Assembly: GCA_032718475.1 (NCBI GenBank)
Contig: JAUCBJ010007522.1
Location: forward strand, 73,263-137,262
Source of the DNA: Nemertoderma westbladi
Taxonomy: Eukaryota > Animalia > Xenacoelomorpha
Length of the DNA stretch: 64,000 nt
Reading direction: 5' to 3'
The position numbers and the translations under genes are program-made. The notes below the pieces were generated by a model. It did no database searches. It was given only the letters and a program-made list of their open reading frames with translations, and was not told where the DNA came from. Below, piece by piece: positions 8,306 to 53,195 of the stretch (position 1 is the first letter of the stretch; each line of letters opens with the position of its first letter).

Positions 8306-9455
8306 TCTTCGCGCTTTTAGACTTTTAGCAGTTTAACCTGCCAAATTTAGGTGTCTTCTAGGTTATAAATCGACTTTAGCCTATGACTAGTATTTGATAC
8401 ACATAAACACTACATTAGCCGAAGCCAGCCTATGCGCGACCATTCACCCACTGGATTTACCCGGGAGACTGGATTCGGAAGCTCTGACCTTATTGCGGTG
8501 TAGGCCTACTGTACTATTCGATTGATCGTTAATATATAATCTCTGACAAATATTATTCACTTTCGGGAAATACTAACAGTTCCTTTAGGACGTGGCGCTC
8601 TAAATATGTAAACAGAGTTATGACTTACACTAAACACAACGGGATGGCTATTGATTTACGTATAAGGCGCATTCTTTAGGAAATGCTTGTTATCTGTCAC
8701 ACTCATGCACACTAACGCACAATGCTGCACACCGATCTGCCGACCTTCACAAATTTTAGTCATATATAAAGAGAACAGCAACCGACACATGTAGGGCCTA
8801 TGAAATAGCATTCATTTCACTCCAAAACCACTATAATGTAAGTCGCAATTGCTATATGTAACCGGTCTCTCTAACCTTCAGTATATCAAGAAGATTGGGG
8901 TTGTTTTATGGTGATTTATCGATATTCTCCAAATATAACAATATTCCATCAACTGATACAATTAATAACCGACAGTAAATAGCAGTAGAATAATGCGTCA
9001 TGCATATGTATGCACTGATAACAGTTATACGTTTCTATAATCAAAGCCGTTCTAATGTTTGGCTAAAGTCTGAAACACAGAATAATTCCATGGCCGGTGT
9101 TCTAGGCTTAGGAAAAATACACACTGACTGAATTGCGTGAGTTTCTGTATGCACTGTCCAACACAGAGGGAAAACCGCTCTGATGGTCGAGCCGAACAAA
9201 GAAAGCCAAAAGCTACACGTCGACATCTCAGCTGATAGATGTCGTCATCTGAAATACACTGTATTAAGAGTATTTTTGGTGCATTGCGGCATAAAATTGC
9301 TAGTTATGTCCGCTAAAGTACACATACAGAAGAAATGGCTTTTTATGTCCACTAAAACACCTGTACAGTAAGGAAACGGCTTTTTATGTCCACTAAAACA
9401 CCTACAGAGTACTTTGCGGGGAAAATAACCAGCTAATTCCGCAAAAGCCTTTACA
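8306..9455 (-). repeat. BEL-B 3' LTR (1150 bp)
   Basis: Direct repeat of 19336-20480. Begins TGTAAAGG on the minus strand and is preceded by the PPT-like GGGAGCAG (plus 9456-9463). Confidence 0.95.
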
Positions 9456-11049: not shown

Positions 11050-11085
11050 AGCTGCAATATGAGTTTATCAATATCATAATGAGTT

Positions 11086-18080: not shown

Positions 18081-19335
18081 CAATTATTTTAGAATAATTG
18101 AATTTCTGAATTTTAGGGGTTACTTGGTTACTTTACTTTACTTTATTACCGTTATTTAAGCAGTAGTCCAACTGATATTAAGGCCTACTATTTTATAAAT
18201 CGGTTGGAGTTGATTTATAATATATATACCCGTTTAACGGGTTTTTGTTACAATATTTGAAATAAATGTTATTATTTCTGGGACGGAGTCACTACACCGA
18301 AGGTATACGCTCTCAGTGAAGTGCTACTTGTTGGACACTAAAACAAATAATTCTACTTGCCTAAGTTACTTAATACTACAAATTACATACAATTACGGGG
18401 TGAGATTACAATCTCTAAATAAACACAAAAATTACACGTACGAATTTTTAGGGTTAATTTTACAGGGAATCTACAAACCGGCCTAACAAGGAGTTAGAAT
18501 GTCTGGTTATTACGAACGGACAGGATACTACAGTATTTGAAAATAATAAAGCAGTAGTAAATATATTGCGTTGTCTAGATAGGAAAAATACCACCGTCTG
18601 ACGACTTATAGCCGTAGTGCTATAAGTACTATGTTATGTATCACGGAGTGTTCCTACCTAGAAGTTAATTACCACAGCCTACTATATCAAACGTGCCTAT
18701 TAACCACTTTACAACACAAATATACTGCCTACACACTAATTACCTTCGGAAAGCACTGTACACTAAACCCTAAATTAGGTACAAGTACTTATACAACAAA
18801 TAACCAGCAGTTAAAAATACTTGTACAGCTAAAAGAACCACGGTATCTGCTGGAGTGACCAATGCACAAAATCACCAGTCTTTACCTACGCCAAACAGTC
18901 CTGATGTAGTACCGGGGTTAATTTAACTATAACGGTATGTATAACAAGCACAATTACTGTAGGAATAAACTTGGGGTTGTGAATGTTGTGAATAATCGCA
19001 TAAACTCTGAATAATAAATATTACGCTACGCGTACAGACTACACAAACAAAATACAGACCAAACGCTGGCAGACTACTATCAAGCCCAAATAAACTACAG
19101 TATATGTAGACTCCGAAATGGTTAGTTAGTATGCGTTCTAACTGAGTAGTACGACTTATTCTTTCGGGGGGGATTTACCTTACAGCACTGGATGCCCCCA
19201 CGTTCCTAACTGGTACTTTATCGGACATACACTCTACACACACCGCAATCTCTTCAGGCCTACTGGTTACCGGTCGACCGGTACTTTTGCCCTTTTTATT
19301 GCCTATGTTGCAATAAAGAAAGCTATAACTGTTAT

Positions 19336-20480
19336 TGTTCGTGCTTTTAGACTTTTAGCAGTTTAACCTGCCAAATTTAGGTGTCTTCTAGGTTATAAAT
19401 CGACTTTAGCCTAAGACTAGTATTTGATACACATAAACACTACATTAGCCGAAGCCAGCCTATGCGCGACCATTCACCCACTGGATTTACCCGGGAGACT
19501 GGATTCGGAAGCTCTGACCTTATTGCGGTGTAGGCCTACTGTACTATTAGATTGATCGTTAATATATAATCTCTGACAAATATTATTCACTTTCGGGAAA
19601 TACTAACAGTTCCTTTAGGACGTGGCGCTCTAAATATGTAAACAGAGTCATGACTTACACTAAACACAACGGGATGGCTATTGATTTACGTATAAGGCGC
19701 ATTCTTTAGGAAATGCTTGTTATCTGTCACACTCATGCACACTAACGCACAATGCTGCACACCAATCTGCCGACCTTCACTAATTTTAGTCATATATAAA
19801 GAGAACAGCAACCGACACATGTAGGGCCTATGAAATAGCATTCATTTCACTCCAAAACCACTATAATGTAAGTCGCAATTGCTATATGTAACCGGTCTCT
19901 CTAACCTTCAGTATATCAAGAAGATTGGGGTTTTATGGTGATTTATCGATATTCTCCAAATATAACAATATTCCATCAACTGATACAATTAATAACAGAC
20001 AGTAAATAGCAGTAGAATAATGCGTCATGCATATGTATGCACTGATAACAGTTATACGTTTCTATAATCAAAGCCGTTCTAATGTTTGGCTAAAGTCTGA
20101 AACACAGAATAATTCCACGGCCGGTGTTCTAGGCTTAGGAAAAATACACACTGACTGAATTGCGTGAATTTCTGTATGCACTGTCCAACACAGAGGGAAA
20201 ACCGCTCTGATTGGTGCCGAACAAAGAAAGCCAAAAGCTACACGTCGACATCTCAGCTGATAGATGTCGTCATCTGAAATACACTGTATTAAGAGTATTT
20301 TTGGTGCATTGCGGCATAAAATTGCTAGTTATGTCCGCTAAAGTACACATACAGAAGAAATGGCTTTTTATGTCCACTAAAACACCTGTACAGTAAGGAA
20401 ACGGCTTTTTATGTCCACTAAAACACCTACAGAGTACTTTGCGGGGAAAATAACCAGCTAATTCCGCAAAAGCCTTTACA
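19336..20480 (-). repeat. BEL-B 5' LTR (1145 bp)
   Basis: TGT...ACA termini on the minus strand. Differs from the 3' LTR by a few substitutions and two small indels. Confidence 0.95.
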
Positions 20481-21258
20481 ACAGGAGACTAGAAATCTCC
20501 ACCCAATATTAGTAAATAGAGATGTGGGACCCTTGATGGCCGCCACATAGACTTACCGTATTTTAGTAATTTAGTATTTTGTATTACTGTATGTGCATTT
20601 GTAATCCTCTTCACTGTAGATAGAGACAGCGGTGGAATTCCATTGTCTTTATATGTGAACATGGAGGGTAGTACCCTTATGTATCACATAGGAGCGGGAT
20701 TGTGTGTACAGTAGGAATGGAATTCCACTTGCAACCCACAAGTGAGACAATTTTTCAAAAATTATTAGACAAATCCATTTTGTTGGATTTAAATTTAAGA
20801 AAAATGATTCTCCAGTGAATGCGAATTCTAGAATACAGCTAGATAAAAATTAAAATTGGGGAGGACAAGAGCGGATGGAAGGCTTGCGAGCCTACCAATA
20901 AAATTTTTTTTTGGAAAAAGAAAATCGGCCTTGTTCTACGTAGTCGTGTCTACTATTATTTAGACCAAATTAATTCTCGACTGCATTATTTCTTTGGGAA
21001 TGTAGTTTGGGAAATTAAAAGGTGAGTATTTTAGACTCGCGGCTAGTTTACCCGGAATTCGTTTTTTATCGGCACAATTTTTTTTTGGATTAGGAGCCAG
21101 TGCGAAATCACACGAACCCGAAGTACCTAAAGAGGTGAGGTCTCTATAGGGGTGCTTCAAACAGGCGGCGGCGGACTCATGAGGGTCTGGGGGCACGTTA
21201 AAATATTTCGCGTATAGTGCTAGGGAGTCACTGAAGGCCCTCGTGTCTAGCGAATCAG

Positions 21259-31151: not shown

Positions 31152-31266
31152 TGTTAATGCCACTAGTGAATGGCATTTACCTCGCAGGCTCGCCCCATAT
31201 TGTTAATTTACTTCTGCCAGGGAATTATTATGTTATACGGCAAGGGCCATGCAGAATAGCTCTGAT

Positions 31267-33801
31267 AATAATAATAATAATAATAAAATAAATTTGTATA
31301 GCGCCAAATTTACAATATTTAAACAGTACGCTAAGGCGCTTAAGTCACTATCTAGAGATATTGGTACATAGCGATAAAGTACGATAAACGAATATAATAA
31401 ACTCAATTAATGCACCAAATACAGACAAATTAGTGATAAAGTAAAATATTTTGGATATTAAAACGGACAAGTAAGCGATATGTAAAATATATGATAAATA
31501 TATGTCATAAAAAATATGTAAAATATTTAGAGCATTAAAATAAAACCGGCAAATTTTGATAATGTTACACAATTGGGGCATTAAAAACAGGCAGATATGT
31601 GACACGACAACGATCAGCATAAGTTCAGTGATACAATTACAAATACTTAAATTAATTACTACAAATTGACAATGCAGTTTGTAATTTTATTGCGTGGCGA
31701 AAAGTATCAAAATAAGACAAATTCGTGATCAACTATAAGCAAAATAATTAATTAAGGATTTAAAACGGACAATTAAGTGACAAACGAATAAGTAAAATAT
31801 TTAGAGCATTAAAACCGGCAAATTTTGATAACGTTACACAATTGGGGCATTAAAAAACAGGCAGATATGTGACACGACAACGATCAGCATAAGTTCAGTG
31901 ATACAATTACAGATACTTAAATTAATTACTACAAATTGACAATGCAGTTTGTAATTTTATTGCGTGGCGAAAAGTATCAAAATAAGACAAATTCGTGATC
32001 AACTAATATAAGCAAAATAATTAATTAAGGATTTAAAACGGACAATTAAGTGACAAACGAATAAGTAAAATATTTAGAGCATTAAAACCGGCAAATTTTG
32101 ATAACGCTACACAATTGGGGCATTAAAAAACAGGCAGATATGTGACACGACAACGATCAATATAAAGTTCAGTAATACAATTACGAATACTTCAATAAAT
32201 AAAACGGTTCAATCAACAGTTCAGTTCAAATTTTCAATATAAGTAAAATTAATTAGAGCTTAAAAGAAAAAAGTTTGTACGATATACAATGCAGTATACA
32301 TACCAACATTATTAGAGCATTAAAAGACAGTTCAATGAAGCAAATTAGATAATATAATTAAATTAAATACTAGAGGTATTCGAAACTAATTATGCGTATG
32401 CCATGGAGAAAAGGTATGTTTTGAGTCGTCGCTTGAAGGTCGGTGTATCGGAAATCGAACGGATATCTGTGGGGAGTTTATTCCAGAGTCTGGGGGCGGC
32501 TATGGGGAAGGCCCGACGGCCCAAAGTTTGGCAGTTAAAACGCGGTTCGACGAGCGAGAGTGAAGTGCACCTTCGGGTTGTGTGGTTTGCGTAGGTCACC
32601 GGGGTTAGCATTTCGCGGATGTACTGTGGTGCTCGTTGCGATCGGGACTTGTGAACGAGGAGAAGTAATTTGAATTCGATGCGTTTCCGAACTGGTAGCC
32701 AATGTAATTGCTTGAGACTCGGAGTGATGTGATCGTATTTGTGAACCTTGGTTAGTAGACGTGCAGCCGAGTTTTGTACGCGTTGCAACTTTGCAAGTTG
32801 GTAGCCAGGTACACCGTAGAGAAGACCGTTACAGTAATCGATACGGCTTGATATGAGCGAGTGTATGATGGTTTCTGCAGACTTCTGGTCGAGAAAGTTA
32901 GCGATGCGTCGAATATTGTGGAAGTGGAAGAAGGCTGCGCTACAAGTTTTTGTTATGAACTTGCTCATGGTTAGACCAGGATCGAGCCATGCACCAAGGT
33001 TCTTCACCGATTTTGCTGGATATATTTCAAAGTCCCCAACACGAATAGACTTAGTAGTTAGTTTAGATAATTGTTGCGGGGTTCCTAATATTATAAACTC
33101 GGTTTTGTCATCGTTTATTTTTAGTTTATTTTCGATGAACCATTCGCGCAAATCTGCGATGCAATTTTCTAGAGCTTTTAGTGCATCGGCTTCATCGGAT
33201 TCGTTAGTTGGCTGAAATGCGTGGTAGGTTTGTTTATCATCTGCATATCCATGTAAAGCAATCGGTAAGTGTCGCTCGATGATTTTAAATAGCCCTCTGC
33301 CAAAGTTCCCAAAGTAGTGACATGATGAGCAAGCTCCCTGGGGAAAACCATATTCTAGTAAGTGATCCTTAGAGTTCGAACCCAATGTTGTTACGTGTTG
33401 ATGACGTCCTCGGAGAAACGATGAAAACCAACGGAGACAGGTGCCACAAATTCCCAGGTCCGACTCGAATACGTTCAATAGCCGATCGTGGTCTACAGTG
33501 TCGAAGGCGGCACTTAGATCTAGTAGCACTAGAAATGTCACCTTCTTGTTGTCCATGTTGATAAGGATATCGGATTGAACTTTAATTAAGGCTGTTTCGG
33601 TACTGTGGAATCGTCGATATCCCGATTCAGTGCATGGTAAAGGATGGTGTTCATCAATGTATGGTAGGAATTGTGACATTACTGCTCGCTCTGCAATTTT
33701 TGATACAAATGGTAAACCACTTACAGGTCGAAAATTGGATTTTATAATCGAGTTCAAATTAGTTTTCTTTAAAGTCGGCGTGACTGTTGCCGTTTTCCGT
33801 T
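31267..33801 (-). mobile_element. 5'-truncated L2/CR1-group LINE
   Basis: RT ORF 33757-32390. The 3' end GGCGCTATACAAAT...(TTA)n has a GCGCC/GGCGC stem. A ~273-bp tandem duplication lies in the 3' UTR (31519-32190). Confidence 0.92.
32390..33757 (-). CDS. LINE ORF2 reverse transcriptase, C-terminal 455 aa
   Basis: NFRPVS, HSTETAL, LDLSAAFDTVDH, GFPQG, YADD, SRIDYCN, LHWLPV and GRRAF motifs. Confidence 0.92.
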   Translation of the reverse strand: MNSIIKSNFRPVSGLPFVSKIAERAVMSQFLPYIDEHHPLPCTESGYRRFHSTETALIKVQSDILINMDNKKVTFLVLLDLSAAFDTVDHDRLLNVFESDLGICGTCLRWFSSFLRGRHQHVTTLGSNSKDHLLEYGFPQGACSSCHYFGNFGRGLFKIIERHLPIALHGYADDKQTYHAFQPTNESDEADALKALENCIADLREWFIENKLKINDDKTEFIILGTPQQLSKLTTKSIRVGDFEIYPAKSVKNLGAWLDPGLTMSKFITKTCSAAFFHFHNIRRIANFLDQKSAETIIHSLISSRIDYCNGLLYGVPGYQLAKLQRVQNSAARLLTKVHKYDHITPSLKQLHWLPVRKRIEFKLLLLVHKSRSQRAPQYIREMLTPVTYANHTTRRCTSLSLVEPRFNCQTLGRRAFPIAAPRLWNKLPTDIRSISDTPTFKRRLKTYLFSMAYA

Positions 33802-36415
33802 TGATTGGCTAATACCCATTTGCATTCAGCTTACCAGCCCCAGCCTATATAGCATTATATCAGTTGGTCAGCCTAACTATTGAAGATTTATTAGTTAACA
33901 GCTCACTAGCTGTTAGTAGATTTGTGGGTCGGAATATTCACGTCAATTCGTGATATTGCCGATGTCAATTTGTGATATTGATTCGTATTATGTCGATTTA
34001 TTGTTTGTCGATTAATTAATTTGTTATATCAGTTGAATTATTGCGATTTATGTTATTATTATGTTATCGATAAAGATAAAGAGAATGGATTCAAGTCATT
34101 CTGTTGTTGATTAACGTTGGTAGCACAATAACATTGAGGTTGGTGGTCTATAGACTGTACGGTATTGCAACTCATCGCACTGGGGTGTACGTGTTACAGT
34201 ATTGTCATATGACGCCTAATATTAATAGCAAACTAACATATTTTAATACGTGCACAAAATTAATTCCTGTGACATCGGTATCTCGGATTGTCAGTTTCAT
34301 AAATCCGACTTCCATAAGTCTCGAATGAATACAGTTTTCAGTTAGACATAAAGACGTAAGCAGCCCAGATACACAACTTAAAGGAACTATTTATACGGGG
34401 TTTCAAATCTGTTTATAGTAACGCCAGTTTTATATGCAACAATAAATTATTCTACGAGTACAAGTAACGGTTACTAGCGCCCGTTTCTTGTATATACAGC
34501 TGGTCGTAAGTTTAGGCTCATTATTTGCAAAATTGAATTGTAGCGCTAACAGTGAATATTTAACTCAGTGAAGATTTCGCCAGCGAATATTATCCACCTG
34601 GTGAATTTTTCTCCTCGCATTTATTGTTGCATTGTCCTTATCTGTAATTCTAGAGTAGGCTATTTAGGACTGCGCACCCTGAATAGAATATTTTAAGTTT
34701 ACAACTGTCGGTGTTATAAATTGATTTACTGTGTATAGAATAGGAGTTGTAAAAATTTATTTACCTGAATGTTTACATTTACAGTATGTACATTTATTGT
34801 TGTAGCATTTAATAGTTCAGTGTAGATTCTGCACTCAAATATTTCAAGCGGCTAACGAACTGCGTGTCCCCCACCTTTTTGATAGGACGTCCCGCACGTC
34901 CCTTGCGTAATTATATCTCGCTTGGTGTCAATCTCGTCTTAATAGTAAATCGAGTATCTATCTAAATATTCTGGGAGAGGTATTTGAAGAAATTTTTCTG
35001 TACTGTGTTGTTTGTGTTTCGATTGTGAATTGCTTATTTGTGAGTGTGATTTCAGGTGACTGAATGTGTTTGTGCTGTTCCCGTCTTGACTGCATGAAAA
35101 CTGGATTAATTGGTCCCATATCAATCCTGTTGGTGTTCGGTATAGTGAGTACGTTTAAGGGATTTGAACGCTCAGTTGTATTGCGTTCAGCGGCAGATCG
35201 ACAGTAAGATTCCTAGCTACGTGCGAATAGGGTATCGATGATCGTTGGGTAACTGAGCAGACGTATTTCTTATTGTAAGCACGAGTTCCTGATATCAAGT
35301 TATTAAATTTTGCTTACCAGCGGGTAAGGCTAAGCAAAATTTATTCCTGTGGACAGCAGTGTTTGTTTGAAAATTGTATGCAATTAAAGAATTTCTCCCT
35401 TGACGCTGTTCGGTTTCGGAGGCTGGGGAAACTTCCACGTGTCAGACTCGACGTTGTAAATCTATGCAGGTCTCGGCGTACCATAAGTCTATGTGTGTTC
35501 GTAACCTGACAGTGGAATTGTGTGCGACAGATTGATAAATATTGTTGAAAGCAAAATGCGAAGTCCCAAAATAGTTGGAATTAAATTCCAGCTATAAACA
35601 TAAATTTACTCCCCTGATAAATCTAACCCGTTAAATTGTCCTATCCATTTATTGTAATATTTTGATTTGTAATATTTTGATTTGTAATAATTTTCTTTGT
35701 ATATTAAGTACGCATTATCATTAGGTACATTCTATTGTATTATCATTCTGTAGTAGATTAATTTATATTGCAGGAATATAAGAATAATCTATATACCAAA
35801 GCAATTTGGTCACATTTATTTCATAGACATACGGCATCAATATAACTTGTCTATATCATTCATTACAGGCATACAAGTTACTCGGAACTGCCAATATATC
35901 GAATTAACTTCCCTGCAGTCGACCCAGTTACTGTTAGTCTATATTGGAACATTGCCAAGAGAGTACAATACAATAGCTTGTAACAGAAAGCTTTAACATC
36001 AGCCCATACTGCCTTGATAATTATTGTAGGTAACTGAGCGAACAAGGAGGGCCATTTGTTATCTCCTCTGACTGCCTTAGTATAAGCCATTTACTGTCAA
36101 GCCCTATTAAATTGAATTATCCATATAGGCATCGCCAATCAGATAGCTACAGTAGCTTCCACCAGTGTAATTTCATCTGAGGGTGTTAGGCAAAGGCGAC
36201 TCCTTACGGGAATATCCAGCACTAGCATTTCTTTAACTAGCACTTGTTATCTTTCTATCAGTAGGTGGCGTGGCTTATTTCTGTTGCAGAAATCAACTGA
36301 CTGACAAGCTATATATACTGCATTAATAATTATTAATTATTTGCAGGCGCTACAGTTTATAAATAAATTATAGATTGGATCTTTTTAATTAATTATATTT
36401 AATTAATTAATTAAC

Positions 36416-39400
36416 ATGGATGATCATAAATCTACTTTAAATAACAATTCTTTTATGTCCGCACCCAGTAATGCTTCTAGTAGTGATGGGTTTGAAGTCC
36501 GTGACAAGATTTTGAGAACCCCTCCTCCAGCAAGAAGTCCAGCAGCTGTACATCCCCCAGTTAGAATACATAGTAGGGAAGTCCAAATAACTGACACACG
36601 GCTTGTAGATCGTCGTAGATCTGTGATCGGCACTAGGGCACAGAGTAAAAGGAAAGGGTTAGTACAGGCAAGTAAGGACACTGAGTTGGACAAAGACTTG
36701 CAAAAATGGAAAAATAAGACTTCCCAGCGAGAACAAGCAGCAAGTGTGGACGTCAGAACACAAAGAAGTCCCACTTATAGTAGTGACAGTTCCAATTCTG
36801 ACAGGGATGGTATTTACAGCAGAAATGACATGAACATGACTGTATTGCCTGACAATGAAATTATACAAGGTAACCAGGCCTCTCATAATACAATAGGTGG
36901 ACCGATAATAGGTGAGGCTTCACACCCCCAATCTGAATCCATTCCAGCTAGTGTAAGTGAAGTCAGTTCATCTAAAGGTTCTGGTTCTGACACCTCGTTT
37001 AAAGATCCCTTAACGAGGCTGCCACCGAATCAATTAATCCGCCTGCTAGAGGCAATAGAGACTTATAAACCAACATCACAACACTCCATGCGGGATATTC
37101 TGCCGGTGAGTTTCAAAGAGAGGTATTACGCCAGCACAATTTCCCCAAGTTACACAGGTTTTTTAACCTAGGTGATGCTACTGTAGAAGAGTTACAAAAA
37201 TTAAAAATGCAAAATCAGTGACAGAATCCATGACTTATCAAAGGATGGCGAGAACATTTAAGCAAGGCTTTAGTAAACAAATTGAGCAACTTAAAATTCG
37301 ACTCCATGCTGAGCGGAGTACACAAGTTATTGATCACTCATTAGATTTCGAAGTGGTGCAGAGAGTGTTGCGTATAAGAATAATTTTTTCGGCATTCCAT
37401 GAAGTGGCACTAAGACTTCAGGATTCTGTTTTGGATAAATTGATAAACGACTTACTCAAAGAAGTGGTTGTCCTATCCAAATCTGTTCTAGAATACAAAC
37501 AAGAAGTCCCAGTAGATGTCATCTCACAACTGACAGATCAAATAGAAATCGTGGGAGAAACAGAATTGCGCCGGCGATTGCAGGGCCTGAACCCAAGGAG
37601 TAAACAAGCTAGACGGGTGTTGGAAGACATTGACCGACTGGGCAAAGAGCGTGCTTTGGAGCAACTGGAATTAGATGCTGCTCAGAAAAGGAGGAAGCAA
37701 CAGGTGATCGAACTAGAATTAGAGGCCGAAGCAGATAAAATTAATGCCAAAGCCGAGGCAGATAGAATTAAGGCCGAAGCCGAGGCAGAGAAAATTAAGG
37801 CCGAAGCTGATACAGAGAAAATTAAGGCTGAAGCTGAGGCAGAGAAAATTAAGGCCGACCAATTAAGGGCATTGGAACTCGAACGAAAGAAAGCGGCTTT
37901 AGCTGCAGAGGATGAAATGGCAAGAAAAAGGGAGGAGATACAAAGGAAATTCTCTTCGCTTGACAAAGAACGGATCACCCGGAAGGCCACTTACTTCTCC
38001 TCATCAGATGAGGGTGCAAGTGATAGTGACATAAGCAAAGTCTATTCCTCGAGGGCCGAGAACAGTCGCAGAAAGCGAGCATCGTTATTCCGGATGCCGG
38101 ATATGCCACCGAGATCTAACCCACATGCATATTCTGACGCCTGCCAAAGTGACACATCCTCTCTAAAACAATCTGCCCCCTTGGTTACCATTATAGATGT
38201 TGATGAGGAAGCTGAAGCTGAACCTGGTCCAGATATGTCAGTTCCAGCGCAATTGACAAACAATAAAATATCAAATAATAAACAACTAAAGGTAACTCTA
38301 GTAACTGGTAAGACACCCGAACTTAATCATAATAACCCTGGCTATGGAACCGCAGCTATGTCGGCAGTAGCTCAGGCTGGACCCGCAGGTAAGACACATG
38401 GATTGAACCAGACTAAACATACTACTGTAAGTTTTGTACAAGGTGAGAAGACTATTAGTGACCCATGTATGTCCAGCACAGTCAGAGTTCCCCGGAATGA
38501 GCGTGTTTCCTTTGAGAGTGGTTTGTCACCGATTAGTCACCGTAGATTGGCCATTGAAGGAACCGATGAGACCCATGGATCCGCAGATATGTCGGAAGTG
38601 GTCATTGGTGAGCAAGGGGCCCATCCTGAACGTGAACAGTTAAGGAGGACCAATGAAACAGGTAAAGTATGTAGGCCAAAAAACATTATTAAACCAATGG
38701 ATAGTGAGATAACTAGAACCCAAATTGAGGAAGGCAAAAGGGTGCAACAGGGTCTGCGAGACACCATCTCAGAGTTAAGACATACATTAGGAAATAATGG
38801 TGAGTTTGCAAATACATATGCAGAAAATCTAAACGAATTAAAGGGAGTGCAAGATGAAATTTTGAGGTTAAATAAAGTGAAGGAAGCTGATCTAAATAAA
38901 CTCCGAGAGAATGATATAGTATTTGAAAGAAAACAAAATGAAATATATTATTCCACTCAAGTTCTGGAGGGAATTCAACAACAACTAGTAACTGCTCAAG
39001 ATACATTAGCTGCGATTAATAACCAATTACCATCATCAGAAAATGTTAGAATTGGGCAGAATGTACACATTCTTCAAAGATCAGCGCAAGCTACTGGTAT
39101 GCATGCAGAAAACATAGCAACCATGAGGACCCAAATGAGAGACACTGATCAACCACCTATTGACCCATTCTTGAACCCTAATCCCATGCAAGTACCACCT
39201 AATGTTACCCGGCCACCAGATAGCCTTGGTAATTTATCGACATCTTTTCTTAACCTCTCAATTCAAGAAAGCCTGAGTAGACAAATGGCCAGACAGGTTG
39301 TAACTGGAGGTGAAACGATAAAATTTAATGGAGATGCATTGAAATGGCTTCCTTTCCACGAGTACTTTAAAGACAATATACAGAACTCACTTTTGACTGA

Positions 39401-40286
39401 AGGAGAAAAATTAAGATTTCTCATTGAATGTCTAGAGGGACCCCCAAAAACAATGGCTCTGAAATATGTAGGTCATCCTCAAGGGTTACAAGAAGCATGG
39501 AACACACTTTCTGAAAGGTATGGTGATCAATCTACCATTGCGATGTTTGTGTTTGACAAATTAATTACAAAGAAACGTATAGCAGGTGGAGGCTTGGTTG
39601 AGTTCTCGGATGAAGTCCATGAGTTGTGTAGACAGTTAGATTGGTTGAATAAGGGAGAAATGTATGACAATTACATGGTCGTCAATAAAATAGCTGGTGC
39701 TCTACCAAAGGGAAATGTTGGTAATCGATGGGATCGTTTTGTTGTTCAAAACAAACGTGATAGACAGCGTGACGTCACCATGAGAGACTTCCTTAAATTC
39801 CTCAAGGATGAAGTCACTCTACAATTTCAAAGAGATGTCCGTGAAAGAGGAAGTGAGGCCAAACCAGCAACCGAGAAACCTGTTATTGTTCCCAGAAAAA
39901 GAGTTATGAATATCTATGACCCAGAATACGATAGCAGTATTTCTTTGAGAGAAGACATGGAATCTGATTCCCAGGAAGTCTACTATTCGAAACCAACCGG
40001 TAAACCCAATAGCCGACTCCATACACTGACAAATACGAAAGGTGATATACAAACCTCCACCCAACGTGATATAAGATCAACCAATGGGATACTACCACGA
40101 TCCCAAGTAACTAACACAAATGATAAAACGGTAACAAATAAATATCCTAATACATGCCCCTTTTGTCCAAAGGTAAGTCATCAAATGTACCAATGCCCAG
40201 AATTTTTAAAGATGAGTGATTTAAAAATTTTTAAAGATCCAGGAGATGGTTTATTAAGAACCAACGTATATGCTACAAATGCTTGA
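36416..40286 (+). pseudogene. gag: BEL-C gag, long N-terminally extended form (frameshifts near 37170 and 40230)
   Basis: RRRSVIGTRAQ, ELRRRLQGLNP and KFNGDALKWLPF...EKLRFLIECLEGPPK, collinear with BEL-B. Tandem AEAEKIK repeats. Confidence 0.9.
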
Positions 40287-43200
40287 AATTTGGTCATTTG
40301 AGGAGAGATTGCAAAATCGTAGGTATTGAGTGTCCAAAATGTAACGGTTCACATCATGCTCTGCTACATAGCGAATCTTACACCCCTAGAAGTATGGAAC
40401 AACGTGTACACTTCAGTGACGCTTGCGAAGATCCGTATGACTCTGACGAACTGGCAGGTTCTCCATATCCAGGTGAGTTTTCAGATGATAGTGACTCGTG
40501 TAATGTGTATCATATTATGATGGAAAGAGCCCTAACTTATGTCTCAAACCCGGAAACAGACGATATCACACCATTACAACACTCATCAGTTAATCAGGTG
40601 ACAAAACTGAAACAGTCCAGGAATGTAGGAGTAAGAGAATTTCCCATAGTCCAGGTGAGATTACATGCAGGTAAAAGAAGCATTATACTAAATGCATTAA
40701 TGGATTCTGGCAGCACGAATACCTTCATAGATAAAGATCTTGCTGAGACACTGTGGGACAACCACGAAATATATCCCATGCGACTTAATTTAGCCGATGT
40801 AATGCAAAAATGGACTTCAACATTGGAAACGTTCTATTGCATTGGTGCTCTGTCAGCCCCGACCAATCATGATCATATATACTCATTGGACAATGTAAAA
40901 ATGGTGGCGATAAAGAACTTCACGAGGGGACAAGCACCATTATATAATTGGGATGAAGACGAATTCACCAACGAACATAACATACCCCGTTATGATGTTG
41001 ACAGTCCTGGAATTTCCCTCCTGATTGGACAGAATGCACATGAGGCTCTCGAGATATTGGAGAAGATACCTAAAAAACCTTTACCTTTAGCACCATACGC
41101 ATGTAGGACGCGGATAGGTTGGTATTGTACGGGACCTTCAACGAAAACCTTACAAGAACGAACCGGAGCAAGTATAAAGGTAAACGAAGTTCTTAGCTAT
41201 GACTCATCACTTGAAAATGTCTTATCGACTGACAATGACCAAAACATAGACCTAGAGAATGATGAGACTGATACAGAGTTAATTGATGACGAACAGTATA
41301 TTAATTATCAAATGCAGAATTATAATTCTTTGCAAGGAAATTTTGTTAACGATGAACATGACGAATTAAGTGAAATCTTGCGAGCTCAGGCTGAATATAA
41401 TGCTGAGCAACAACTCGTTGAAGATGAGCGATCCCGTGACATACAACGGACTACCACAAAATTCTTAAAGAATGAAGGTAAGTATGAAATAGGTTTACTT
41501 TGGCGCTCTCGGGATCCCAAGTTCCATAACAACAGAATTCTAGCAGAGAAGAGAGTGGAACAATTAAAGCGACGTTTGGCTGCAAACCATAACGCATGGC
41601 ACATGTATAGGGAACAGATGGAGAAGTTCATCACAAAAGGGTATGCTGAAGAAGTGCCAACAAGGACACCAGAATCAAATCGGACATACTATATAACTCA
41701 TCACTATGTGGAACGTCCCGACAAGCCAGGTACTGTGAGAGTGGTCTTTGATGCTTCAGCTCTATATAAAGGACAGTCTCTCAATTCAGAATTAATGACT
41801 GGTCCCAACATGTTGCAATCCCTTCTAGGAATCTTGATTCGCCTTCGCCAATACTCGATCGCCTTCGCCTCAGATATTGAAGGCATGTTTTTACAAGTGA
41901 AGGCCCTACAAGTAGACAGAGATAGCCTCCGGTTTTTTTGGTGGCCAGACGGAGACTTTAGAAAACCTCTGAAGGAATATTGGATGACGGTACAAGCGTT
42001 TGGCATTAATTCCAGCCCATCTAACTCATGCTTCATTGTTCATACCACGGCGGATGATAACCAACATGATTTCTAGCCCACCATCCTAGAAAATATCAAG
42101 AAAGATATATATATGGATGACAACTTGAAGTCTGTTCTAACCGTTGAGGAGGCGATAAGCATAGCGAAAGGCACAGTAGAATGTCTTAAACGAGGAGGAT
42201 TCAAGCTCACGAAGTTCGCTAGCAACTCCAGAGAGTTTCTGGACTCAATACCATTCGAAGACCGTGGTGCGAAAAATCTGGATTTGACACGTGATGATTT
42301 ACCGGAAACAAAGACATTAGCTTCTAAAGCTCTCATTGTGAATAAAGAGTTAAGGACACGACCACCTAGGGCAGAATTGAAAGCAGGTTTCTATGCAACA
42401 ACTGTTGCTAAAAACGTGACTGAATATTTGAATTTTGAAATATCAAGGACTACATTTTGGACTGACGCTGTCTTGGTTCTAGAATATTTAACTAACGAAG
42501 TATGTCAGTTTAGTGTATATGTAACGAACAGAGTTGCAATCATGCTCAGCCGCACAAAGGTGGATCAATGGAGGCATTGCCCCGGTACTATCAATCCCGC
42601 TGACATTGCTTCGCGTGGTGCGACTACAAGAGAGTTGATTAATACCAAATGTTGGCTCAACGGACCAGAGTTCTTATGGGAGGCTGGAAACGAATGGCCG
42701 AAAAATCTGACACCGGCAGAAATCCGACAGGCTAAGGGAGCCGAAATAATAAAGCCAAGGAAAACTACAAAATCAAAGTTATTCACCAAACCACTTGATA
42801 TAACTGCCCAAATAGTTGACAATGACTTGGCCCGGAAACCAGAAACTTCTGGACTTCAGAATTCGTATTTCACTAAACATGAGGAACCCCATGAAAACAT
42901 AACGACCAATTCAGACTTACCAAACCATATTAGTGATACTTCAAAGATCACACCACGACAATCAAGTGATACATTGCCTAACATAAAACAAGGATTATCA
43001 CCCTTATTGGAAGAAGCAATGAATCACTATAGTTCTTGGTACCGGTATAGACTTTGTAAGAGCGAGACATATCTCAAGAAATACGTGCACTACCGTTTTG
43101 GTGTGTCTAGAGACTGTACACCAGCAGTGACGCGAGGAGATATTGATGAGACTAATAAACAACTACTGCGTCTTTCTCAGAAACTCGATGACCCAGCAAG

Positions 43201-43704
43201 GTACAATAAATTGGTGAGTGAACCAGGCATCACGTTGCGTGACAATTACACAAGTGTCATGATAGATGGGTTAATTAGGGTAGGGGGTAGATTGACTAAC
43301 GCTCCTGTGTCTAAGGATACCATATTCCCAATAATAATATATAGCCCAGATATACAACGTAAGTTAATTCAAGACACACATGCCAAACTTTACCATGCTG
43401 GCCGTGAACGAATTCTTAGTGAACTGCGCACTCGTTATTACTTGGTTAAACCCCGTAAGTCACTTAATAAAATTTTAAGGAATTGCATCCCCTGTAAAAG
43501 ACTGTACAGTAAGCCATTAACCCAAATTGAAGCGGAGTTACCACGTGAGAGGGTAAGTTGCTACCAACCGCCGTTCACAAACACCGGTGTTGACATGTTT
43601 GGACCAATAGAGGTCAAACGAGCACGTACCAAAGTAAAACGATGGTGTATTATATTTGTTTGTCAGACGTGTAGAGCGATACATCTGGATATGGTCAACG
43701 ACAT
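40283..43704 (+). pseudogene. pol: BEL-C pol: knuckles, protease, RT, partial RNase H, N-half of integrase
   Basis: ALMDSGS, YITHH, DIEGMFLQV, YMDD, WRHCPGTINPAD, H..H/CIPC and GVDMFGP. Stop at 42076. In-frame deletion at ETKTLA|SKA. Confidence 0.92.
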
Positions 43705-44005
43705 TGTTAGATTATGTATTGTAAGGGCTCTAGTAGACCCTGGCTTGGTGGTGGTTAGATCCAACCTACTGGTCTTTTAGCTACCGGTCTTCTTCTGGTA
43801 TTCCGGTATTCAGTCTTTCCTATCTTCTAGGTCTGTAGGTACAGTAACCGTTACCAGTACCTACTGTACTGCTGTACTGATGTGCTGTAAGGTGGTGGGT
43901 GTGTTCGTTGGTCTGTTGGTTCTTATTATTGTTTGATATGCTGTTCTGTATGTCGACCATTAATAAACTGATGCAGCTGGTATTCATTTATTTCCGATCC
44001 CAATA

Positions 44006-44016
44006 TGGCGCAGTGA
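44006..44016 (+). promoter_or_regulatory. tRNA primer-binding site of the Gypsy element (TGGCGCAGTGA; possibly tRNA-Ser)
   Basis: TGG lies immediately after the 5' LTR. The tRNA identity is from memory of tRNA-Ser 3' ends (...CTGCGCCA) and was not verified. Confidence 0.75.
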
Positions 44017-44177
44017 TGTACTTGATGTTCCTACAACCCTATTCAAATGGTGGACATTCCAGCGCATTCAGCAGGTTAGATAATTCAACATTATTCTACC
44101 GGTCGCCTCTACTGATTCTGATATAGGCCTAGCTACCTACCTATACTTCTGGTGGTGTACCTACTCCAGTACTCTTC

Positions 44178-44353
44178 TAAACTAAGCCCTTGGGACGGAC
44201 AGTGGAGTGACTCACGCTGGTTATCGTTGTCGTTGTGTAGCTACTACGTTGGCGAAAAACACAGCGACGACGGTAGCCTACATCGGCGCTGAGGACCTTG
44301 CGCTGTCCGGGGGCCTTGAGGGGTAGGCAGCGACGCCCGCTAGCCTAATTATA
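44178..44353 (+). ncRNA. Putative structured RNA module in the Gypsy 5' UTR, shared with BEL-B
   Basis: Closely matches the reverse complement of 11086-11256. Several differences are G-U/Watson-Crick exchanges within stems. Confidence 0.65.
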
Positions 44354-44555
44354 CTGTTATAACTACCGGTACCTATTCAATTCACATTCAGCAGTCAGGT
44401 GGTATTCCAGTCTGCCAGTATTCGATAACTACAGATTTTGGCTGATTTGCGTGCAAAAGTTTTGCACATTTTTGCAAAATTTTTTCTTTTCGGATTTTTC
44501 AAATTTTTTCGGATATTTAATTTCCTGAAATTTCTTTAATATTCAACAGTCAGAT

Positions 44556-47500
44556 ATGCCTACTAAAGCTGAACTCGAAACCGAACTGGAGGTTTTAAGA
44601 GAACAGTTGGCTGGTCGTGGTAATCCTGATCCCACCTCAGCTCTTCTACATGCATTAGTTAAATCGCAACGCGATTTGGCTGATTCCTTAGCACAATCCC
44701 AAGCCCAAAATGCCCATCAATTTCAACAATTACTTGGTCAACCGCATCAACCTGTAGTTCATCAGTCTGACTCAACCCCTCGTAATCTTCAAATTAAAGC
44801 ACCAATTGCTTTAGAACCGGATTTCAGTTTAGCAAAATTTGAAACTCGGAAGTCGGTTTGGGCGGATTATTATTCTGCATTTCAGATGGATAGAATGGCT
44901 AGGGATAGGCAAATCTGTATTTTCAGGAGTTACCTTTCTATAGGTATGCGCTCTACACTGGAACAAGTTATTGACATTCCTCCTGACACACATGATAATC
45001 CTTTAACAGTTCAGGTGTTAATAGATTGTATTCAAAGTTATTTTCGTGGTAAACGGAATATAGCCCTTGATTGTGTTCAGTTTGATAATAGGAAACAACG
45101 TCAAAGTGAAAATTTTGATAGCTACCTGGTTGCTATTAAAGATCTTGCTCGAGATGCTGATCTATGTCGTCATTGTTTCGATCGGCGGTTGACTACTCGA
45201 ATTATGTCTGGTATTTCTTGCGAGGACACCAGATCTAAACTTCTTGCATTGACTCCATTTCCATCGCTTGAAGATGCTGTAAATCTTTGTAGGTCTGAGG
45301 AATCAGCCCAAGCTGGAGTTCAGGATTTAAAAAACCCTTCAATCAACCAAGCTTCTCGACAATCTCGTTTTCACAACAAAAAGCCTTATAATTCCAGGCG
45401 CAACAATTCTTCTAAATCCAATTCCAGAAACAATTCTTCAACTACTGGCCCTATAGTTTGTTATGGTTGTGGTAAAACAGACCATAAACGCGCTGACTGT
45501 CCAGCAAGGAACAAAGATTGTTCTTATGGTGGCAAGGAAGGCCACTTTGCCAATGTTTGTCGGTCTAAACAAAATAATTCGAATTCATCTTCAAAACCTA
45601 AGACAAAACCCATTAGCCGCATCACCCTCAATTTGGTTGGAAGCCATAATCGACAAGCTCCGAAAGTATTTCTGAACTTCTGTCATATCGCAACAGGACA
45701 TTTATTCGGTTCTCTCAAAGCAACTCCAGATACTGGTGCTGAGGCCACTGTTGCCGGCTTAGATTTTCTTCAGGCCCTTTCTATTGACAAAGAAAATTTA
45801 CTTCCACCAGACCATGATGATCTTTCTGCTGCTAATGGTAGTCTTCTTTCATGCATTGGTCTCCTCCACACCACAATTTCCTATGGCGAATATTCAACTG
45901 ATGAGCTCATCTGCATTTGTGAAGAAGTCGATGGAATTCTTTTGGCATGGTATACTTGTCAAAACCTAGGAATTATTTCAAGTTCATATCCAGAACCAGT
46001 GGCAGAAATTCAGTCTGTTACTTCTTCTAATTCTTCTAATATGTCACCTATTGGTATTAAAAACTCAATTCCAACAACATCATTCAAGGTTGACTTCCAT
46101 CTTTCTGATGAACCTTCGCCTTCAGAATGGGATACTGTTAAGCAGAAACTCATAAAGGCTTATTCTGATGTTTTTGACCAAGATGACAAACTTCGTCCAA
46201 TGAATGGCCCACCCATGACCATTTCATTAAAAGATGATGCCCAACCATATGCTATTCATACAGCCAGGCAACTTCCTTTAGCCATTAGAGACTGGGCTAA
46301 AGCTCGCTTAGAGAAAATGGTTGAACAAGGTATTATTTGTCCAGTTCTGGATAACGAACCAACTGATTGGGTCCATCCTTCCGATATCACTTCTGATATC
46401 ACTTCCGATATCATTTCCGATATCACTTCCGATATCACTTCCGATATCACTTCCGATATCACTTCCGATATCACTTCTGATATCACTTCCGATATCATTT
46501 CCGATATCACTTCCGATATCACTTCCGATATCACTTCCAATATCATTTCCGATATCACTTCCGATATCACTTCTGATATCACTTCCGATATCACTTCCGA
46601 TATCACTTCCGATATCACTTCCGATATCGATTCGATTCCAGACGCACTTTCCCGTGCCCCTGTTTCGGATCCTACTCCAGAGGATATTCTTTGTGATACA
46701 GATGTCAATGACCATGTCTCCGCAGTCATACGTCACGTGTCTACCTCAATTGTTGTCTCTGATGCTCCAAGTCATCTCAAGGATTCATATATTGAGTCTA
46801 TCCGATCATCTGCAAAGGATGATATTTCTTACATGGCTTTGGTGGATGCTGTTATTTCTGGATTTCCCTCAACATCCACACAATGTTCTGTGCACATACG
46901 CCCATTCTGGAATGTGCGACATCAGTTATCTTGTGAAGATAATCTTCTTTTATTAGGTTCCCGGATTGTAATTCCATCTTCCCTCCGTAAGGATGTCCTG
47001 AAGCACCTTCATGATGCTCATCAGGGCATTGAACGTTTTAAGAGGAGAGCTAGGCAAACTGTATTCTGGCCTGGTATCAATAGCGATATTACAAGCATAG
47101 TCAATTCTTGTCCCCAGTGTCAACTTTATCAACCAAGTTTACCTACAGAGTCTCTCCAAAGCGACCCTCATCCATGTCTTCCAATGGAGGATTGCTCTGC
47201 TGATCTTTTCTACTTCAGCACCTGGTCATACCTGGTTTATGTCGATAGATATTCTGGGTGGCCATGCGTTCATTCTTGGTGTGCCGATCCTTCCAGCTCT
47301 CAAGTTATTTCAGCTCTTCGAGGATGGTTCAAAGATTTCGGTATTCCAAAACGCCTTCGTTCTGATGGTGGTACACAATTTAATTCAGCACATTATCATG
47401 ATTTCTTATCCGAATGGAATATCATCCCTGAGTATTCTACTCCTGAGTATCCTCAGTCTAATGGCCATGCAGAGGGGGCTGTAAAGGCCATGAAATCATT

Positions 47501-48020
47501 GATAAAAAAGTTAGATATCAAAGGAGATCTAAACTCTACTTGCTTTGTTCGTGGTTTGCTGGAATGGAGAAATACTCCTAAAGAACATGGTATGTCTCCA
47601 GCTCAACTGTTGTTTGGTAGATCCCTCCGTTCCACTATACCAGCTCATTCGTCCACACTGGCAGGTGATTCATTCCCTATCCCTGGTCCTTCAACGTCTT
47701 CAGCAACTGAATCATATTATAATGATCATGCTCACGACTTAACCCCGATTCCTATTGGTTCCCGAGTTTGCATCCAGAGTGCACATTCCAAACTATGGAA
47801 CAAATCTGGTATCGTCCTTTCCCGTGGTACTAGGCAAGATTACAGGATTGAACTAGACAATGGTCGGGTGTATTGGAGAAATCGTCGTTATCTGCGTTCC
47901 ATCCCAGATGACTCTTCTCTTCGTGACATAATGCCTCAAAAACAGGTACAGTTCGCTGATGATCTTCCCAGGCGCAGTTCGAGAACTCACAAGCAACCAG
48001 CAAGATTCGGAGTTCAATGA
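44556..48020 (+). CDS. Gypsy Gag-PR-(RT/RNase H replaced by repeat)-IN single ORF, 1154 aa
   Basis: Two knuckles (CYGCGKTDHKRADC, CSYGGKEGHFANVC), PR PDTGAE, RT start ...WVHP, then (SDIT)n, then IPDALSR. IN: LHDAHQG..CPQC, SDGGTQF, PQSNGHAE. Confidence 0.92.
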   Translation: MPTKAELETELEVLREQLAGRGNPDPTSALLHALVKSQRDLADSLAQSQAQNAHQFQQLLGQPHQPVVHQSDSTPRNLQIKAPIALEPDFSLAKFETRKSVWADYYSAFQMDRMARDRQICIFRSYLSIGMRSTLEQVIDIPPDTHDNPLTVQVLIDCIQSYFRGKRNIALDCVQFDNRKQRQSENFDSYLVAIKDLARDADLCRHCFDRRLTTRIMSGISCEDTRSKLLALTPFPSLEDAVNLCRSEESAQAGVQDLKNPSINQASRQSRFHNKKPYNSRRNNSSKSNSRNNSSTTGPIVCYGCGKTDHKRADCPARNKDCSYGGKEGHFANVCRSKQNNSNSSSKPKTKPISRITLNLVGSHNRQAPKVFLNFCHIATGHLFGSLKATPDTGAEATVAGLDFLQALSIDKENLLPPDHDDLSAANGSLLSCIGLLHTTISYGEYSTDELICICEEVDGILLAWYTCQNLGIISSSYPEPVAEIQSVTSSNSSNMSPIGIKNSIPTTSFKVDFHLSDEPSPSEWDTVKQKLIKAYSDVFDQDDKLRPMNGPPMTISLKDDAQPYAIHTARQLPLAIRDWAKARLEKMVEQGIICPVLDNEPTDWVHPSDITSDITSDIISDITSDITSDITSDITSDITSDITSDIISDITSDITSDITSNIISDITSDITSDITSDITSDITSDITSDIDSIPDALSRAPVSDPTPEDILCDTDVNDHVSAVIRHVSTSIVVSDAPSHLKDSYIESIRSSAKDDISYMALVDAVISGFPSTSTQCSVHIRPFWNVRHQLSCEDNLLLLGSRIVIPSSLRKDVLKHLHDAHQGIERFKRRARQTVFWPGINSDITSIVNSCPQCQLYQPSLPTESLQSDPHPCLPMEDCSADLFYFSTWSYLVYVDRYSGWPCVHSWCADPSSSQVISALRGWFKDFGIPKRLRSDGGTQFNSAHYHDFLSEWNIIPEYSTPEYPQSNGHAEGAVKAMKSLIKKLDIKGDLNSTCFVRGLLEWRNTPKEHGMSPAQLLFGRSLRSTIPAHSSTLAGDSFPIPGPSTSSATESYYNDHAHDLTPIPIGSRVCIQSAHSKLWNKSGIVLSRGTRQDYRIELDNGRVYWRNRRYLRSIPDDSSLRDIMPQKQVQFADDLPRRSSRTHKQPARFGVQ
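46380..46628 (+). repeat. 12-bp tandem repeat (TCCGATATCACT) x ~21, in frame
   Basis: Direct tandem copies with a palindromic GATATC core. Confidence 0.97.
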
Positions 48021-48392
48021 ACTGACCTATTGGTGGTGGTTGGATTTTTTTTTTTCAGTACAAATGTCTCCTACATTGTTCTTGGGGGAGATGGTAGATT
48101 ATGTATTGTTAGGGCTCTAGTAGACCCTGGCTTGGTGGTGGTTAGATCCAACCTACTGGTCTTTTAGCTACCGGTCCTCTTCTGGTATTCCGGTATTCAG
48201 TCTTTCCTATCTTCTAGGTCTGTAGGTACAGTAACCGTTACCGGTACCTACTGTACTGCTGTACTGATGTGCTGTAAGGTGGTGGGTGTGTTCGTTGGTC
48301 TGTTGGTTCTTATTATTGTTTGATATGCTGTTCTGTATGTCGACCATTAATAAACTGATGCAGCTGGTATTCATTTATTTCCGATCCCAATA

Positions 48393-49277
48393 GACATGTC
48401 GATGGATAGCTTCCTTTTGTGTTTGAGACGACAGATAGCACGGTTCGGCAGCAGTCAAACTATACGTTCTGACCAAGGAACCAATTTCGTCGGCGCTAGC
48501 AGAGAAATCACCACATATGTTGATAGATGGAACCAGGAACAAGTTGATGAGTTATTGAGAGTAAACGCGGCAACTTGGACATTCAACGCAGCTGATGCAC
48601 CATGGTGGGGAGGTAGCTGGGAGCGGATGATCCGAAGTGTTAAAATAGCATTCCACCACGTGATACCATGCGGGGCATACCTAACAGATGAGTTACTTCG
48701 CACCTTTCTGGAAGAAATAGCAGCTTACATTAACGACCGCCCATTGATGCCTGCTTCGTCTGATCCGAAGTCATTGGAGTCGCTGACACCTGCCCACTTC
48801 CTGATGAAGAAACCTATCGTTATGGTACCTGTTTCTAATTCGGAAGATTCCCATATATACTTACGTCAAACATGGCGGATGATGCAATTACTTTCCAATA
48901 GATTCGCCATACACTTCGAGAAACACTACTTACCATCTCTCCAACTGCGCACCAAATGGTTTAGTCGTCAGGAAAACCTTCAAATTGATGACGTAGTACT
49001 AATAGTCGACGACGATATCCCGAGGAAACGATGGCAAACTGGACGTGTCACAGTTGTCCATACATCCGCTGACGGACTTGTGAGATCAGTCGACCTCATC
49101 GTAATGAGAAAGAAGAAACAAAGGGAGAAGGATAAGAAGAAATTAGAATTCGTACCTCAAACATTGAATAGACCAATTGGACGGCTCTGTTTGCTGGAAA
49201 TAGCCCGCGAGGAATCAGGCGATTATGGTCGTAAAAAACCAACACTGTATTCCTTTGAACACATTAATCCAAATTAA
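48393..49277 (+). pseudogene. pol: BEL-C integrase C-terminal half
   Basis: SDQGTNFVGA, APWWGGSWERMIRSVK, LTPAHFL, DGLVRSV and LNRPIGRLCLLE. Confidence 0.93.
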
Positions 49278-52328: not shown

Positions 52329-53195
52329 TGTTAATGCCACTAGTGAATGGCATTTACCTCGCAGGCTCGCCCCATATTGTTAATTTACTTCTGCCAGGGA
52401 ATTATTATGTTATACGGCAAGGGCCATGCAGAATAGCTCTGATTGGCTAATACCCATTTGCATTCAGCTTACCAGCCCCAGCCTATATATAGTATAGCAT
52501 TATATCAGTTGGTCAGCCTAACTATTGAAGATTTATTAGTTAACAGCTCACTAGCTGTTAGTAGATTTGTGGGTCGGAATATTCACGTCAATTCGTGATA
52601 TTGCCGATGTCAATTTGTGATATTGATTCGTATTATGTCGATTTATTGTTTGCCTATTAATTAATTTGTTATATCAGTTGAATTATTGCGATTTATGTTA
52701 TTATTATGTTATCGATAAAGATAAAGAGAATGGATTCAAGTCATTCTGTTGTTGATTAACGTTGGTAGCACAATAACATTGAGGTTGGTGGTCTATAGAC
52801 TGTCACGGTATTGCAACTCATCGCACTGGGGTGTGTGTTACAGTATTGTCATATGACGCCTAATATTAATAGCAAACTAACATATTTTAATACGTGCACA
52901 AAATTAATTCCTGTGACATCGGTATCTCGGATTGTCAGTTTCATAAATCCGACTTCCATAAGTCTCGAATGAATACAGTTTTCAGTTAGACATAAAGACG
53001 TAAGCAGCCCAGACACACAACTTAAAGGAACTATTTATACGGGGTTTCAAATCTGTTTATAGTAACGCCAGTTTTATATGCAACAATAAATTATTCTACG
53101 AGTACAAGTAACGGTTACTAGCGCCCGTTTCTTGTATATACAGCTGGTCGTAAGTTTAGGCTCATTATTTGCAAAATTGAATTGTAGCGCTAACA
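52329..53195 (+). repeat. BEL-C 3' LTR (867 bp)
   Basis: TGT...ACA termini. ATTGG (CCAAT) at ~52442, TATATATA at ~52484, AATAAA at ~53085. Confidence 0.95.

Follow-up and report, generated by a model that had tools for sequence, protein, structure and literature searches.

Results

Layout and age of the BEL-C element

The window, the whole stretch of 64,000 nucleotides analysed here, is repetitive DNA of animal-like character and contains three BEL/Pao elements, one nested Gypsy-type element, LINE pieces, and satellites. One of the BEL/Pao elements, BEL-C, spans positions 31152 to 53195 and has the following parts.

31152..31265, + strand: left part of the 5' LTR (start of U3), 114 of 114 positions identical to 52329-52442, preceded by TATAC
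31266..33801, - strand: LINE fragment within the 5' LTR (RVT_1 match, ORF 32390-33808), with the LTR resuming on either side; limits approximate
33802..34551, + strand: right part of the 5' LTR, ending in CA; 745 identities, 3 mismatches, and 10 gap columns against the 3' LTR
36407..49277, + strand: gag-pol, with matches to DUF1759, Integrase_H2C2, DUF5641, and weakly Peptidase_A17, and by tblastn against BEL-A
52329..53195, + strand: 3' LTR, 867 bp; TATAC follows it, and the primer sequence recurs at 52569-52586

The 5' LTR starts at 31152 and is split by the LINE fragment. Over 867 bp, the LTR pair shows 859 identities and only 3 mismatches, indicating that the insertion is recent. TATAC flanks both ends as a target-site duplication, although it is also part of a satellite unit. 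The insertion site is a 20-bp satellite (30180-31151 and 53196-57927), and further satellites with units of 61 bp (25695-28089) and 36 bp (60960-61503) lie nearby.

The element has the gag-PR-RT-RH-IN order with Pao-type domains. Stops and frameshifts disrupt the gag-pol, which in addition has an internal deletion in the RT/RNase H region and is interrupted in integrase by the Gypsy insertion. The match to Peptidase_A17 is weak in BEL-C and strong in BEL-A and P0001-P0003. No chromodomain match is found in BEL-C and its domains are of Pao type, so it does not carry the Ty3/Gypsy chromovirus polyprotein that defines Tf1/sushi members. A search for homologous proteins gives 3 matches, and a search of representative proteins gives 150 matches at 31-47% identity; a scan of viral contigs finds no relatives. 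A leader of ~1.85 kb (34552-36415) precedes the first gag ATG. In addition, U5 holds a strong donor-like GTAAGT at 34504-34511, and splicing from this donor would take the primer-binding site (PBS) described below out of the gag mRNA.

The bases behind the BEL-C LTR are complementary to the LTR

The LTR copies match each other as far as CTAACA and part at the following base (34551 and 53195). Because the copies diverge right after CA, the LTR boundary is fixed independently of any pairing, and the LTR end at 34551 without a following TGG is as first reported. TGG is absent from the first 8 nt behind the LTR, the nearest one being 48 nt downstream, and an 18-nt PBS for tRNA-Arg or tRNA-Gly is not present. 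ARAGORN finds no tRNA genes in the window, and Rfam gives a single match on 33700-36500, below the gathering score. The bases adjoining the LTR are complementary to a segment of the LTR, as in Tf1-type elements.

33924..33941, + strand: putative self-primer, with a 9-nt core (33933-33941) ending in AC and a second arm (33924-33929); cut predicted after 33941 by analogy to Tf1
34552..34567, + strand: putative non-tRNA PBS, flush with the LTR end, without TGG

Bases 34552-34561 form 9 Watson-Crick pairs and 1 G-U pair with 33932-33941, flush with the LTR boundary, in agreement with the preliminary description. Beyond a 2x1 internal loop, bases 34563-34567 form a second helix with 33925-33929. 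A TATA-like run at 33846-33852 would place the transcription start ~45 nt upstream of the second arm.

To reach 9 Watson-Crick pairs flush with the boundary is rare in dinucleotide shuffles of the LTR (180 of 20,000), and the null rate in this check, which had been proposed beforehand, is thus low. If offsets of 0-5 are allowed, 1613 of 20,000 shuffles (8%) reach 9 Watson-Crick pairs. The energy of the duplex formed by the first 17 post-LTR bases, which comprises both helices, is reached by 2 of 1000 shuffles. The 10-mer that includes the G-U pair was discarded as evidence; it is uninformative, as ~24% of 5000 shuffles reach it. In real non-repeat DNA of the window, a 9-nt flush complement lies upstream at 0.5-1.3% of positions. 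Taken alone, the BEL-C pairing is modest evidence, and it is marginal if an offset is allowed.

An array of sites and a competing hairpin

Two further features surround the putative primer and its binding site.

33928..33962, + strand: local hairpin able to sequester the primer core; -14.4 kcal/mol, z -2.5
34552..34617, + strand: array of four near-copies of the PBS, starting at 34552, 34568, 34583, and 34601, all of which can pair with the primer region

The duplexes of the four array copies with the primer region have energies of -14.8, -13.1, -12.3, and -10.7, respectively. In stability, the local hairpin (-14.4) is on a par with the long-range duplex (-14.8). When the whole leader is folded, the duplex has a probability of 0.7-0.9 in three of ten folds, all of which combine a start at 33920-33930 with a shorter 3' end, and of about 0 in the other seven. 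Two near-identical 19-nt repeats lie just after the primer (33941-33982); each contains a near-copy of the PBS core, and both can fold back onto the primer.

The BEL-C family is present in four DNA runs (X1-X4). Among the variants listed for their contigs at a 3% threshold, none falls in the primer or the 9-nt core. Compared with the window copy, the single X1 contig spanning LTR and leader has an extra unit of ~30 nt right behind the LTR, and loose ends of X3 contigs agree with it; in the pieces shown, the contigs of X2 and X4 do not bridge this place. The extra unit has an identical 9-nt core and lacks the G-U pair, and its second arm, read by eye, is CCCAC opposite GTGGG, with 5 Watson-Crick pairs. 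The G-U pair and the ACTCA arm of the window copy belong to the second unit of the array and are not the family-typical form, while the core is unchanged. The ACTCA arm that had been described thus does pair behind a small loop in the window copy, but neither it nor the G-U pair is typical of the family. The loss of pairing in other copies, named beforehand as an outcome that would speak against selection, is not seen, since the core pairing is kept in other copies.

BEL-B and the nested Gypsy element

Two other elements of the window bear on the pairing.

8306..9455, - strand: BEL-B 3' LTR; target duplication ACAGG at 8301-8305 and 20481-20485
19324..19335, - strand: putative BEL-B PBS, 12 Watson-Crick pairs, flush with the LTR end
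19336..20480, - strand: BEL-B 5' LTR, with the putative self-primer core at 20056-20045, ending in AT
43705..48392, + strand: nested Gypsy-type element, negative control, with 301-bp LTRs and a TGG PBS at 44006; RT domain not found

In BEL-B (8306-20480, - strand), gag and protease are retained, but little is left of RT, RNase H, and integrase. Thousands of diverged contigs cover the BEL-B LTR, at a depth far greater over R/U5 than over U3. The LTR end of BEL-B is fixed by the LTR pair together with the ACAGG target duplication. The 12 flush Watson-Crick pairs are reached by 7 of 20,000 LTR shuffles; the duplex energy is ordinary, 149 of 1000 shuffles reaching it. None of the 40 variants listed (of 364) in BEL-B contigs falls in the primer or the PBS core.

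The LTRs of BEL-B and BEL-C share no evident sequence, as had been noted, and give no alignment better than E 0.42. The two elements had been presented as independent cases, and the LTR bases indeed differ; however, among the loci compared BEL-B and BEL-C are each other's closest relatives, with 44-58% identity between proteins and an identity of 49%, compared with at most 26% for any other locus. BEL-B and BEL-C are sister families, not independent origins, and the geometry may be inherited. The same pairing made with different bases still counts as compensatory change.

The nested Gypsy element serves as the internal control that it was proposed to be. TGG lies directly behind its LTR, and its flush complement is 3 nt long, a length reached by 17,066 of 20,000 shuffles. 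The element has parts of gag, a protease-like region, and integrase, a 12-bp tandem repeat (46378-46628) lies where RT/RNase H would be expected, and its LTR ends in TA.

The matches in BEL-C and BEL-B could arise by chance or from a repeated palindromic DNA motif, e.g. a protein-binding site in the LTR and leader, and not from selected RNA pairing, whatever holds for distant relatives. The warning that the core is palindromic is well founded, more so for BEL-B: of the 12 positions of its core, 10 are the same in the reverse complement, compared with 6 of 9 for BEL-C. A count over both strands in 42 kb of the window gives 19 occurrences of GAATATT, and BEL-C has near-copies of its site, two in R and four behind the LTR. 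In BEL-B, however, the central base differs between the LTR and leader copies exactly as complementarity demands, and the motif is found only there. Moreover, a chance match would leave both elements without any primer site.

A survey of related BEL loci

We surveyed 79 related BEL loci from metagenome contigs, 38-47% identical in RT. Eleven of them were taken with an LTR end defined by the repeat, and in this subset the search for spliced complements asked only for GT..AG. The post-LTR bases pair with the locus's own LTR in 8 of the 11. In six, a complement of 11-15 nt exists solely across a GT..AG junction inside the LTR (reached by 0-3 of 300 shuffles each); the donor is GTAAG in all six and the acceptor is pyrimidine-rich, neither of which the search demanded. 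In another two, the complement is contiguous as in BEL-C (0 and 2 of 300 shuffles). The remaining three comprise one TGG-type site, one locus left unclassified (L062), and one whose "LTR end" is a contig-end overlap and thus a false boundary (L017). The TGG-type PBS belongs to a single family (L028, 56-80, and L037), lies 5 nt behind the LTR, and has no self-complement.

The full scan covers the 58 loci that have enough upstream DNA. A spliced complement of at least 11 nt across GT[A/G]AG..AG is found in 23 of the 58 loci (15 families), compared with a mean of 0.4 and a maximum of 1 in shuffled sequences, and all 23 end in AC or AT. This clade survey, proposed beforehand as a check, thus comes out in favour of pairing. 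Contiguous hits number 8 of 58, compared with a shuffled mean of 3.5 and maximum of 7, so that this class as such is not above chance; with an AC or AT end required, 6 hits stand against a shuffled mean of 0.63 and maximum of 4. The contiguous hits in L029 and L068 lack such an end and are treated as chance.

In BEL-C and BEL-B, no GT[A/G]AG donor lies upstream of the primer end (258 and 436 nt, respectively). A spliced primer was rejected for BEL-C, where the best complement is 8 nt, and for BEL-B, where splicing only re-cuts the same site with a poor donor.

BEL-B, BEL-C, and 22 related families make up a compilation of 24 families; because 14 of the 22 were picked by the pairing scan itself, tallies over it are partly circular, and the part outside that circularity consists of the 8 families with repeat-defined ends plus BEL-B and BEL-C. 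The predicted primer ends in AC in 21 families and in AT in 3, and the PBS starts 0-5 nt behind the LTR. The 24 families carry 23 distinct cores, many of them non-palindromic, and none has TGG in the first 8 nt. The same arrangement, a PBS at the LTR boundary that is complementary to the LTR at a low null rate, is thus shared by many related families that use different bases. On the 5' side of the primer, a second helix falls in the best tenth in 13 of 24 families (Fisher p 2e-10), but this helix alone is not significant in BEL-C (q 0.17) or BEL-B (q 0.42). The bases that directly follow the primer show no enriched pairing with U5 (1 of 24 families). Flanking helices as in the Tf1 pretzel are not enriched in a crude test either (4 and 2 of 21 families under 0.1), in which the q values are 0.53 and 0.17 for BEL-C and 0.87 and 0.27 for BEL-B. 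Local pairing is stronger for contiguous than for spliced primers (0.72 vs 0.48, p 0.02), a post hoc comparison that is confounded by the pyrimidine tracts of introns.

The distance from the primer end to the LTR end is 610 nt in BEL-C and 709 nt in BEL-B, compared with 47-216 nt in the 19 relatives measured. That the two elements are outliers in this respect would suit a chance match or a DNA motif. On the other hand, their flush position, AC/AT end, and second arm fit the pattern of the 22 other families. We consider it unlikely that chance or a motif accounts for the two matches.

Some loci resemble the window elements in detail. L079, left out of the 24 families because it has two candidate sites and no LTR pair, contains a candidate contiguous site (6138-6149 and 6474-6486) with ATAAC directly after ACA, like BEL-B and Tf1. 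L045 and L073 are spliced and distant on the tree; the letters of their predicted primer and PBS resemble those of BEL-C, with which they share a zero spacer, AC followed by G, and a GGG/CCAC second arm.

The tree has 25 rows; for 20 of 81 rows, RT or integrase was insufficient for inclusion, and BEL-B has no RT. The spliced or contiguous state changes at least four times on the tree, as forced by the starred branches, gains and losses not being distinguished. L072 (spliced) and L071 (contiguous) are sisters (100/100) that share the primer end and differ in the remainder, which is still complementary in each. BEL-C and BEL-A share a long branch that lies outside the surveyed group; the identity of BEL-C to surveyed loci does not exceed 43%, and under midpoint rooting the TGG-type L028 falls between BEL-C and the self-pairing group. 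Because of this long branch and the position of L028, the survey supports BEL-C by analogy and not by close kinship. Selection on the pairing between post-LTR bases and the element's own LTR, as originally suggested, is supported, and it is the clade survey, not BEL-C alone, that decides for it.

Discussion

A proposed priming mechanism

BEL-C is a recent BEL/Pao insertion that has no tRNA-type site behind its 5' LTR, matches its own LTR there over 9 bp, and likely primes minus-strand DNA synthesis from its own transcript in a Tf1-like manner. The transcript would start upstream of 33924, and its bases 33924-33941 would fold onto 34552-34567. Cleavage of the RNA would follow the AC at 33941, with the RNase H of the reverse transcriptase as the probable nuclease, as judged from Tf1. 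The new 3'-OH would then lie at the LTR end and be extended over ~610 nt of U5 and R. Finally, the nascent DNA would jump to the 3' LTR, where U3 and the primer sequence itself would be copied.

An alternative is that RNA of the element primes, but that the 3'-OH comes from the copy in the 3' LTR, from another RNA molecule, or from a short transcript that ended prematurely, and not from a Tf1-like cut near the 5' end. This would be in line with the presence of the primer sequence in both LTRs, with the 610 nt that a loop in cis would have to span, and with the broken RT/RNase H region of this BEL-C copy. However, AATAAA is found 111 nt short of the LTR end and well downstream of the primer site, which puts the normal 3' end elsewhere. 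In addition, the A[C/T] at the primer end is conserved and mostly has a C behind it, which resembles a cut-site preference. We regard this alternative as very improbable.

It is also conceivable that the duplex is real but structural, serving packaging, dimerisation via the palindromic core, or a translation switch, and that priming falls to a cleaved tRNA or a different small RNA of the host. There are Copia lineages with half-tRNA priming and no TGG, according to the available parts of PMC6317226 and PMC10886601, and a palindromic core with competing hairpins would fit a switch. A set of host RNAs, however, would not explain 23 distinct cores each matching its own LTR, and the duplex always ends 0-5 nt from the CA of the LTR, where priming must start. 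A purely structural role is quite unlikely in our judgement, and we return to self-priming.

For most relatives, the prediction is that the primer forms solely once an LTR intron has been spliced. Such an intron could persist because the spliced 5' copy would be consumed as primer while the 3' LTR serves as DNA template. BEL-C and BEL-B would carry the primer ready-made, with no strong donor upstream. Copying of a spliced 3' LTR would yield an intron-less element like BEL-C, although this direction of change is a guess. From the sequences compared, BEL-C is an intron-less example of an arrangement for which most relatives seem to require splicing.

On balance, we lean slightly towards a broader picture, in which self-priming would be normal across a wide part of BEL/Pao, the primer would mostly be built from LTR exons joined by the spliceosome, and the intron would have been lost or gained repeatedly, with at least four changes on the tree. 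BEL-C and BEL-B would be intron-less, and in BEL-C the hairpin and the array of sites would replace the splicing switch.

If true, BEL/Pao would be a third superfamily with self-priming, beside the Gypsy-type Tf1/sushi and, as predicted, some plant Copia elements. With a conserved primer end and, in most families, a primer that requires splicing, it would tie retroelement replication to the host spliceosome. Self-priming would also explain BEL elements without a detectable PBS, and it could bear on control by tRNA fragments, which work via sites of the tRNA type.

Comparison with known systems

BEL/Pao is the least studied superfamily of LTR retrotransposons. No report of self-priming or of a splice-built primer in BEL/Pao was found in the full texts searched, and an earlier mention elsewhere may exist. 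In the main text of two BEL/Pao surveys, neither PBS nor tRNA occurs (PMC3118150, PMC554778). Self-priming is described for Tf1/sushi, Tcn1, and TAR in the parts available of PMC6317226, PMC4600332, PMC6934838, PMC3601003, and PMC5443660, and the word "self" is absent from the accessible portion of PMC10886601.

The ICTV describes Belpaoviridae as having an 18-nt PBS for tRNA-Arg or tRNA-Gly; this trait is descriptive, the family being defined by phylogeny (PMC8742986). BEL-C resembles Belpaoviridae in its two LTRs, its gag-PR-RT-RH-IN order, and its Pao-type Pfam domains. Unlike the elements so described, BEL-B, BEL-C, and the 22 related families have no PBS for tRNA-Arg or tRNA-Gly.

For the plant elements TAR (Houba, Osr-1) of Copia and Tcn1, self-priming was predicted from PBS-LTR complementarity alone (PMC6317226, as far as available). 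These belong to other superfamilies than BEL-C, and a splice-built primer is not mentioned in the portion of that source at hand.

The closest likeness is to Tf1. According to the available text of PMC7175516, the Tf1 transcript's initial 11 bases anneal to the PBS, and RNase H cleaves after base 11. Tf1, Tf2, and Tj1, and Tf1/sushi (Ty3/Gypsy chromoviruses) in general, share with BEL-C a PBS that lies right behind an LTR ending in CA and is complementary to the element's own sequence, in their case over ~11 nt of the 5' RNA and with no tRNA involved (available parts of PMC7175516, PMC10085805, and PMC4600332). The Tf1 PBS starts with ATAAC, as does that of BEL-B (PMC11042837, in the part accessible). 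BEL-C differs from Tf1 in belonging to another superfamily, BEL/Pao. Furthermore, the extra helix of the BEL families extends the 5' side of the primer, and helices like those of the three-duplex pretzel described in the available part of PMC10085805 are not enriched. Most relatives of BEL-C, unlike Tf1, need a predicted splice to form the primer. By analogy, BEL-C likely acts like Tf1 at the priming step without being a member of Tf1/sushi.
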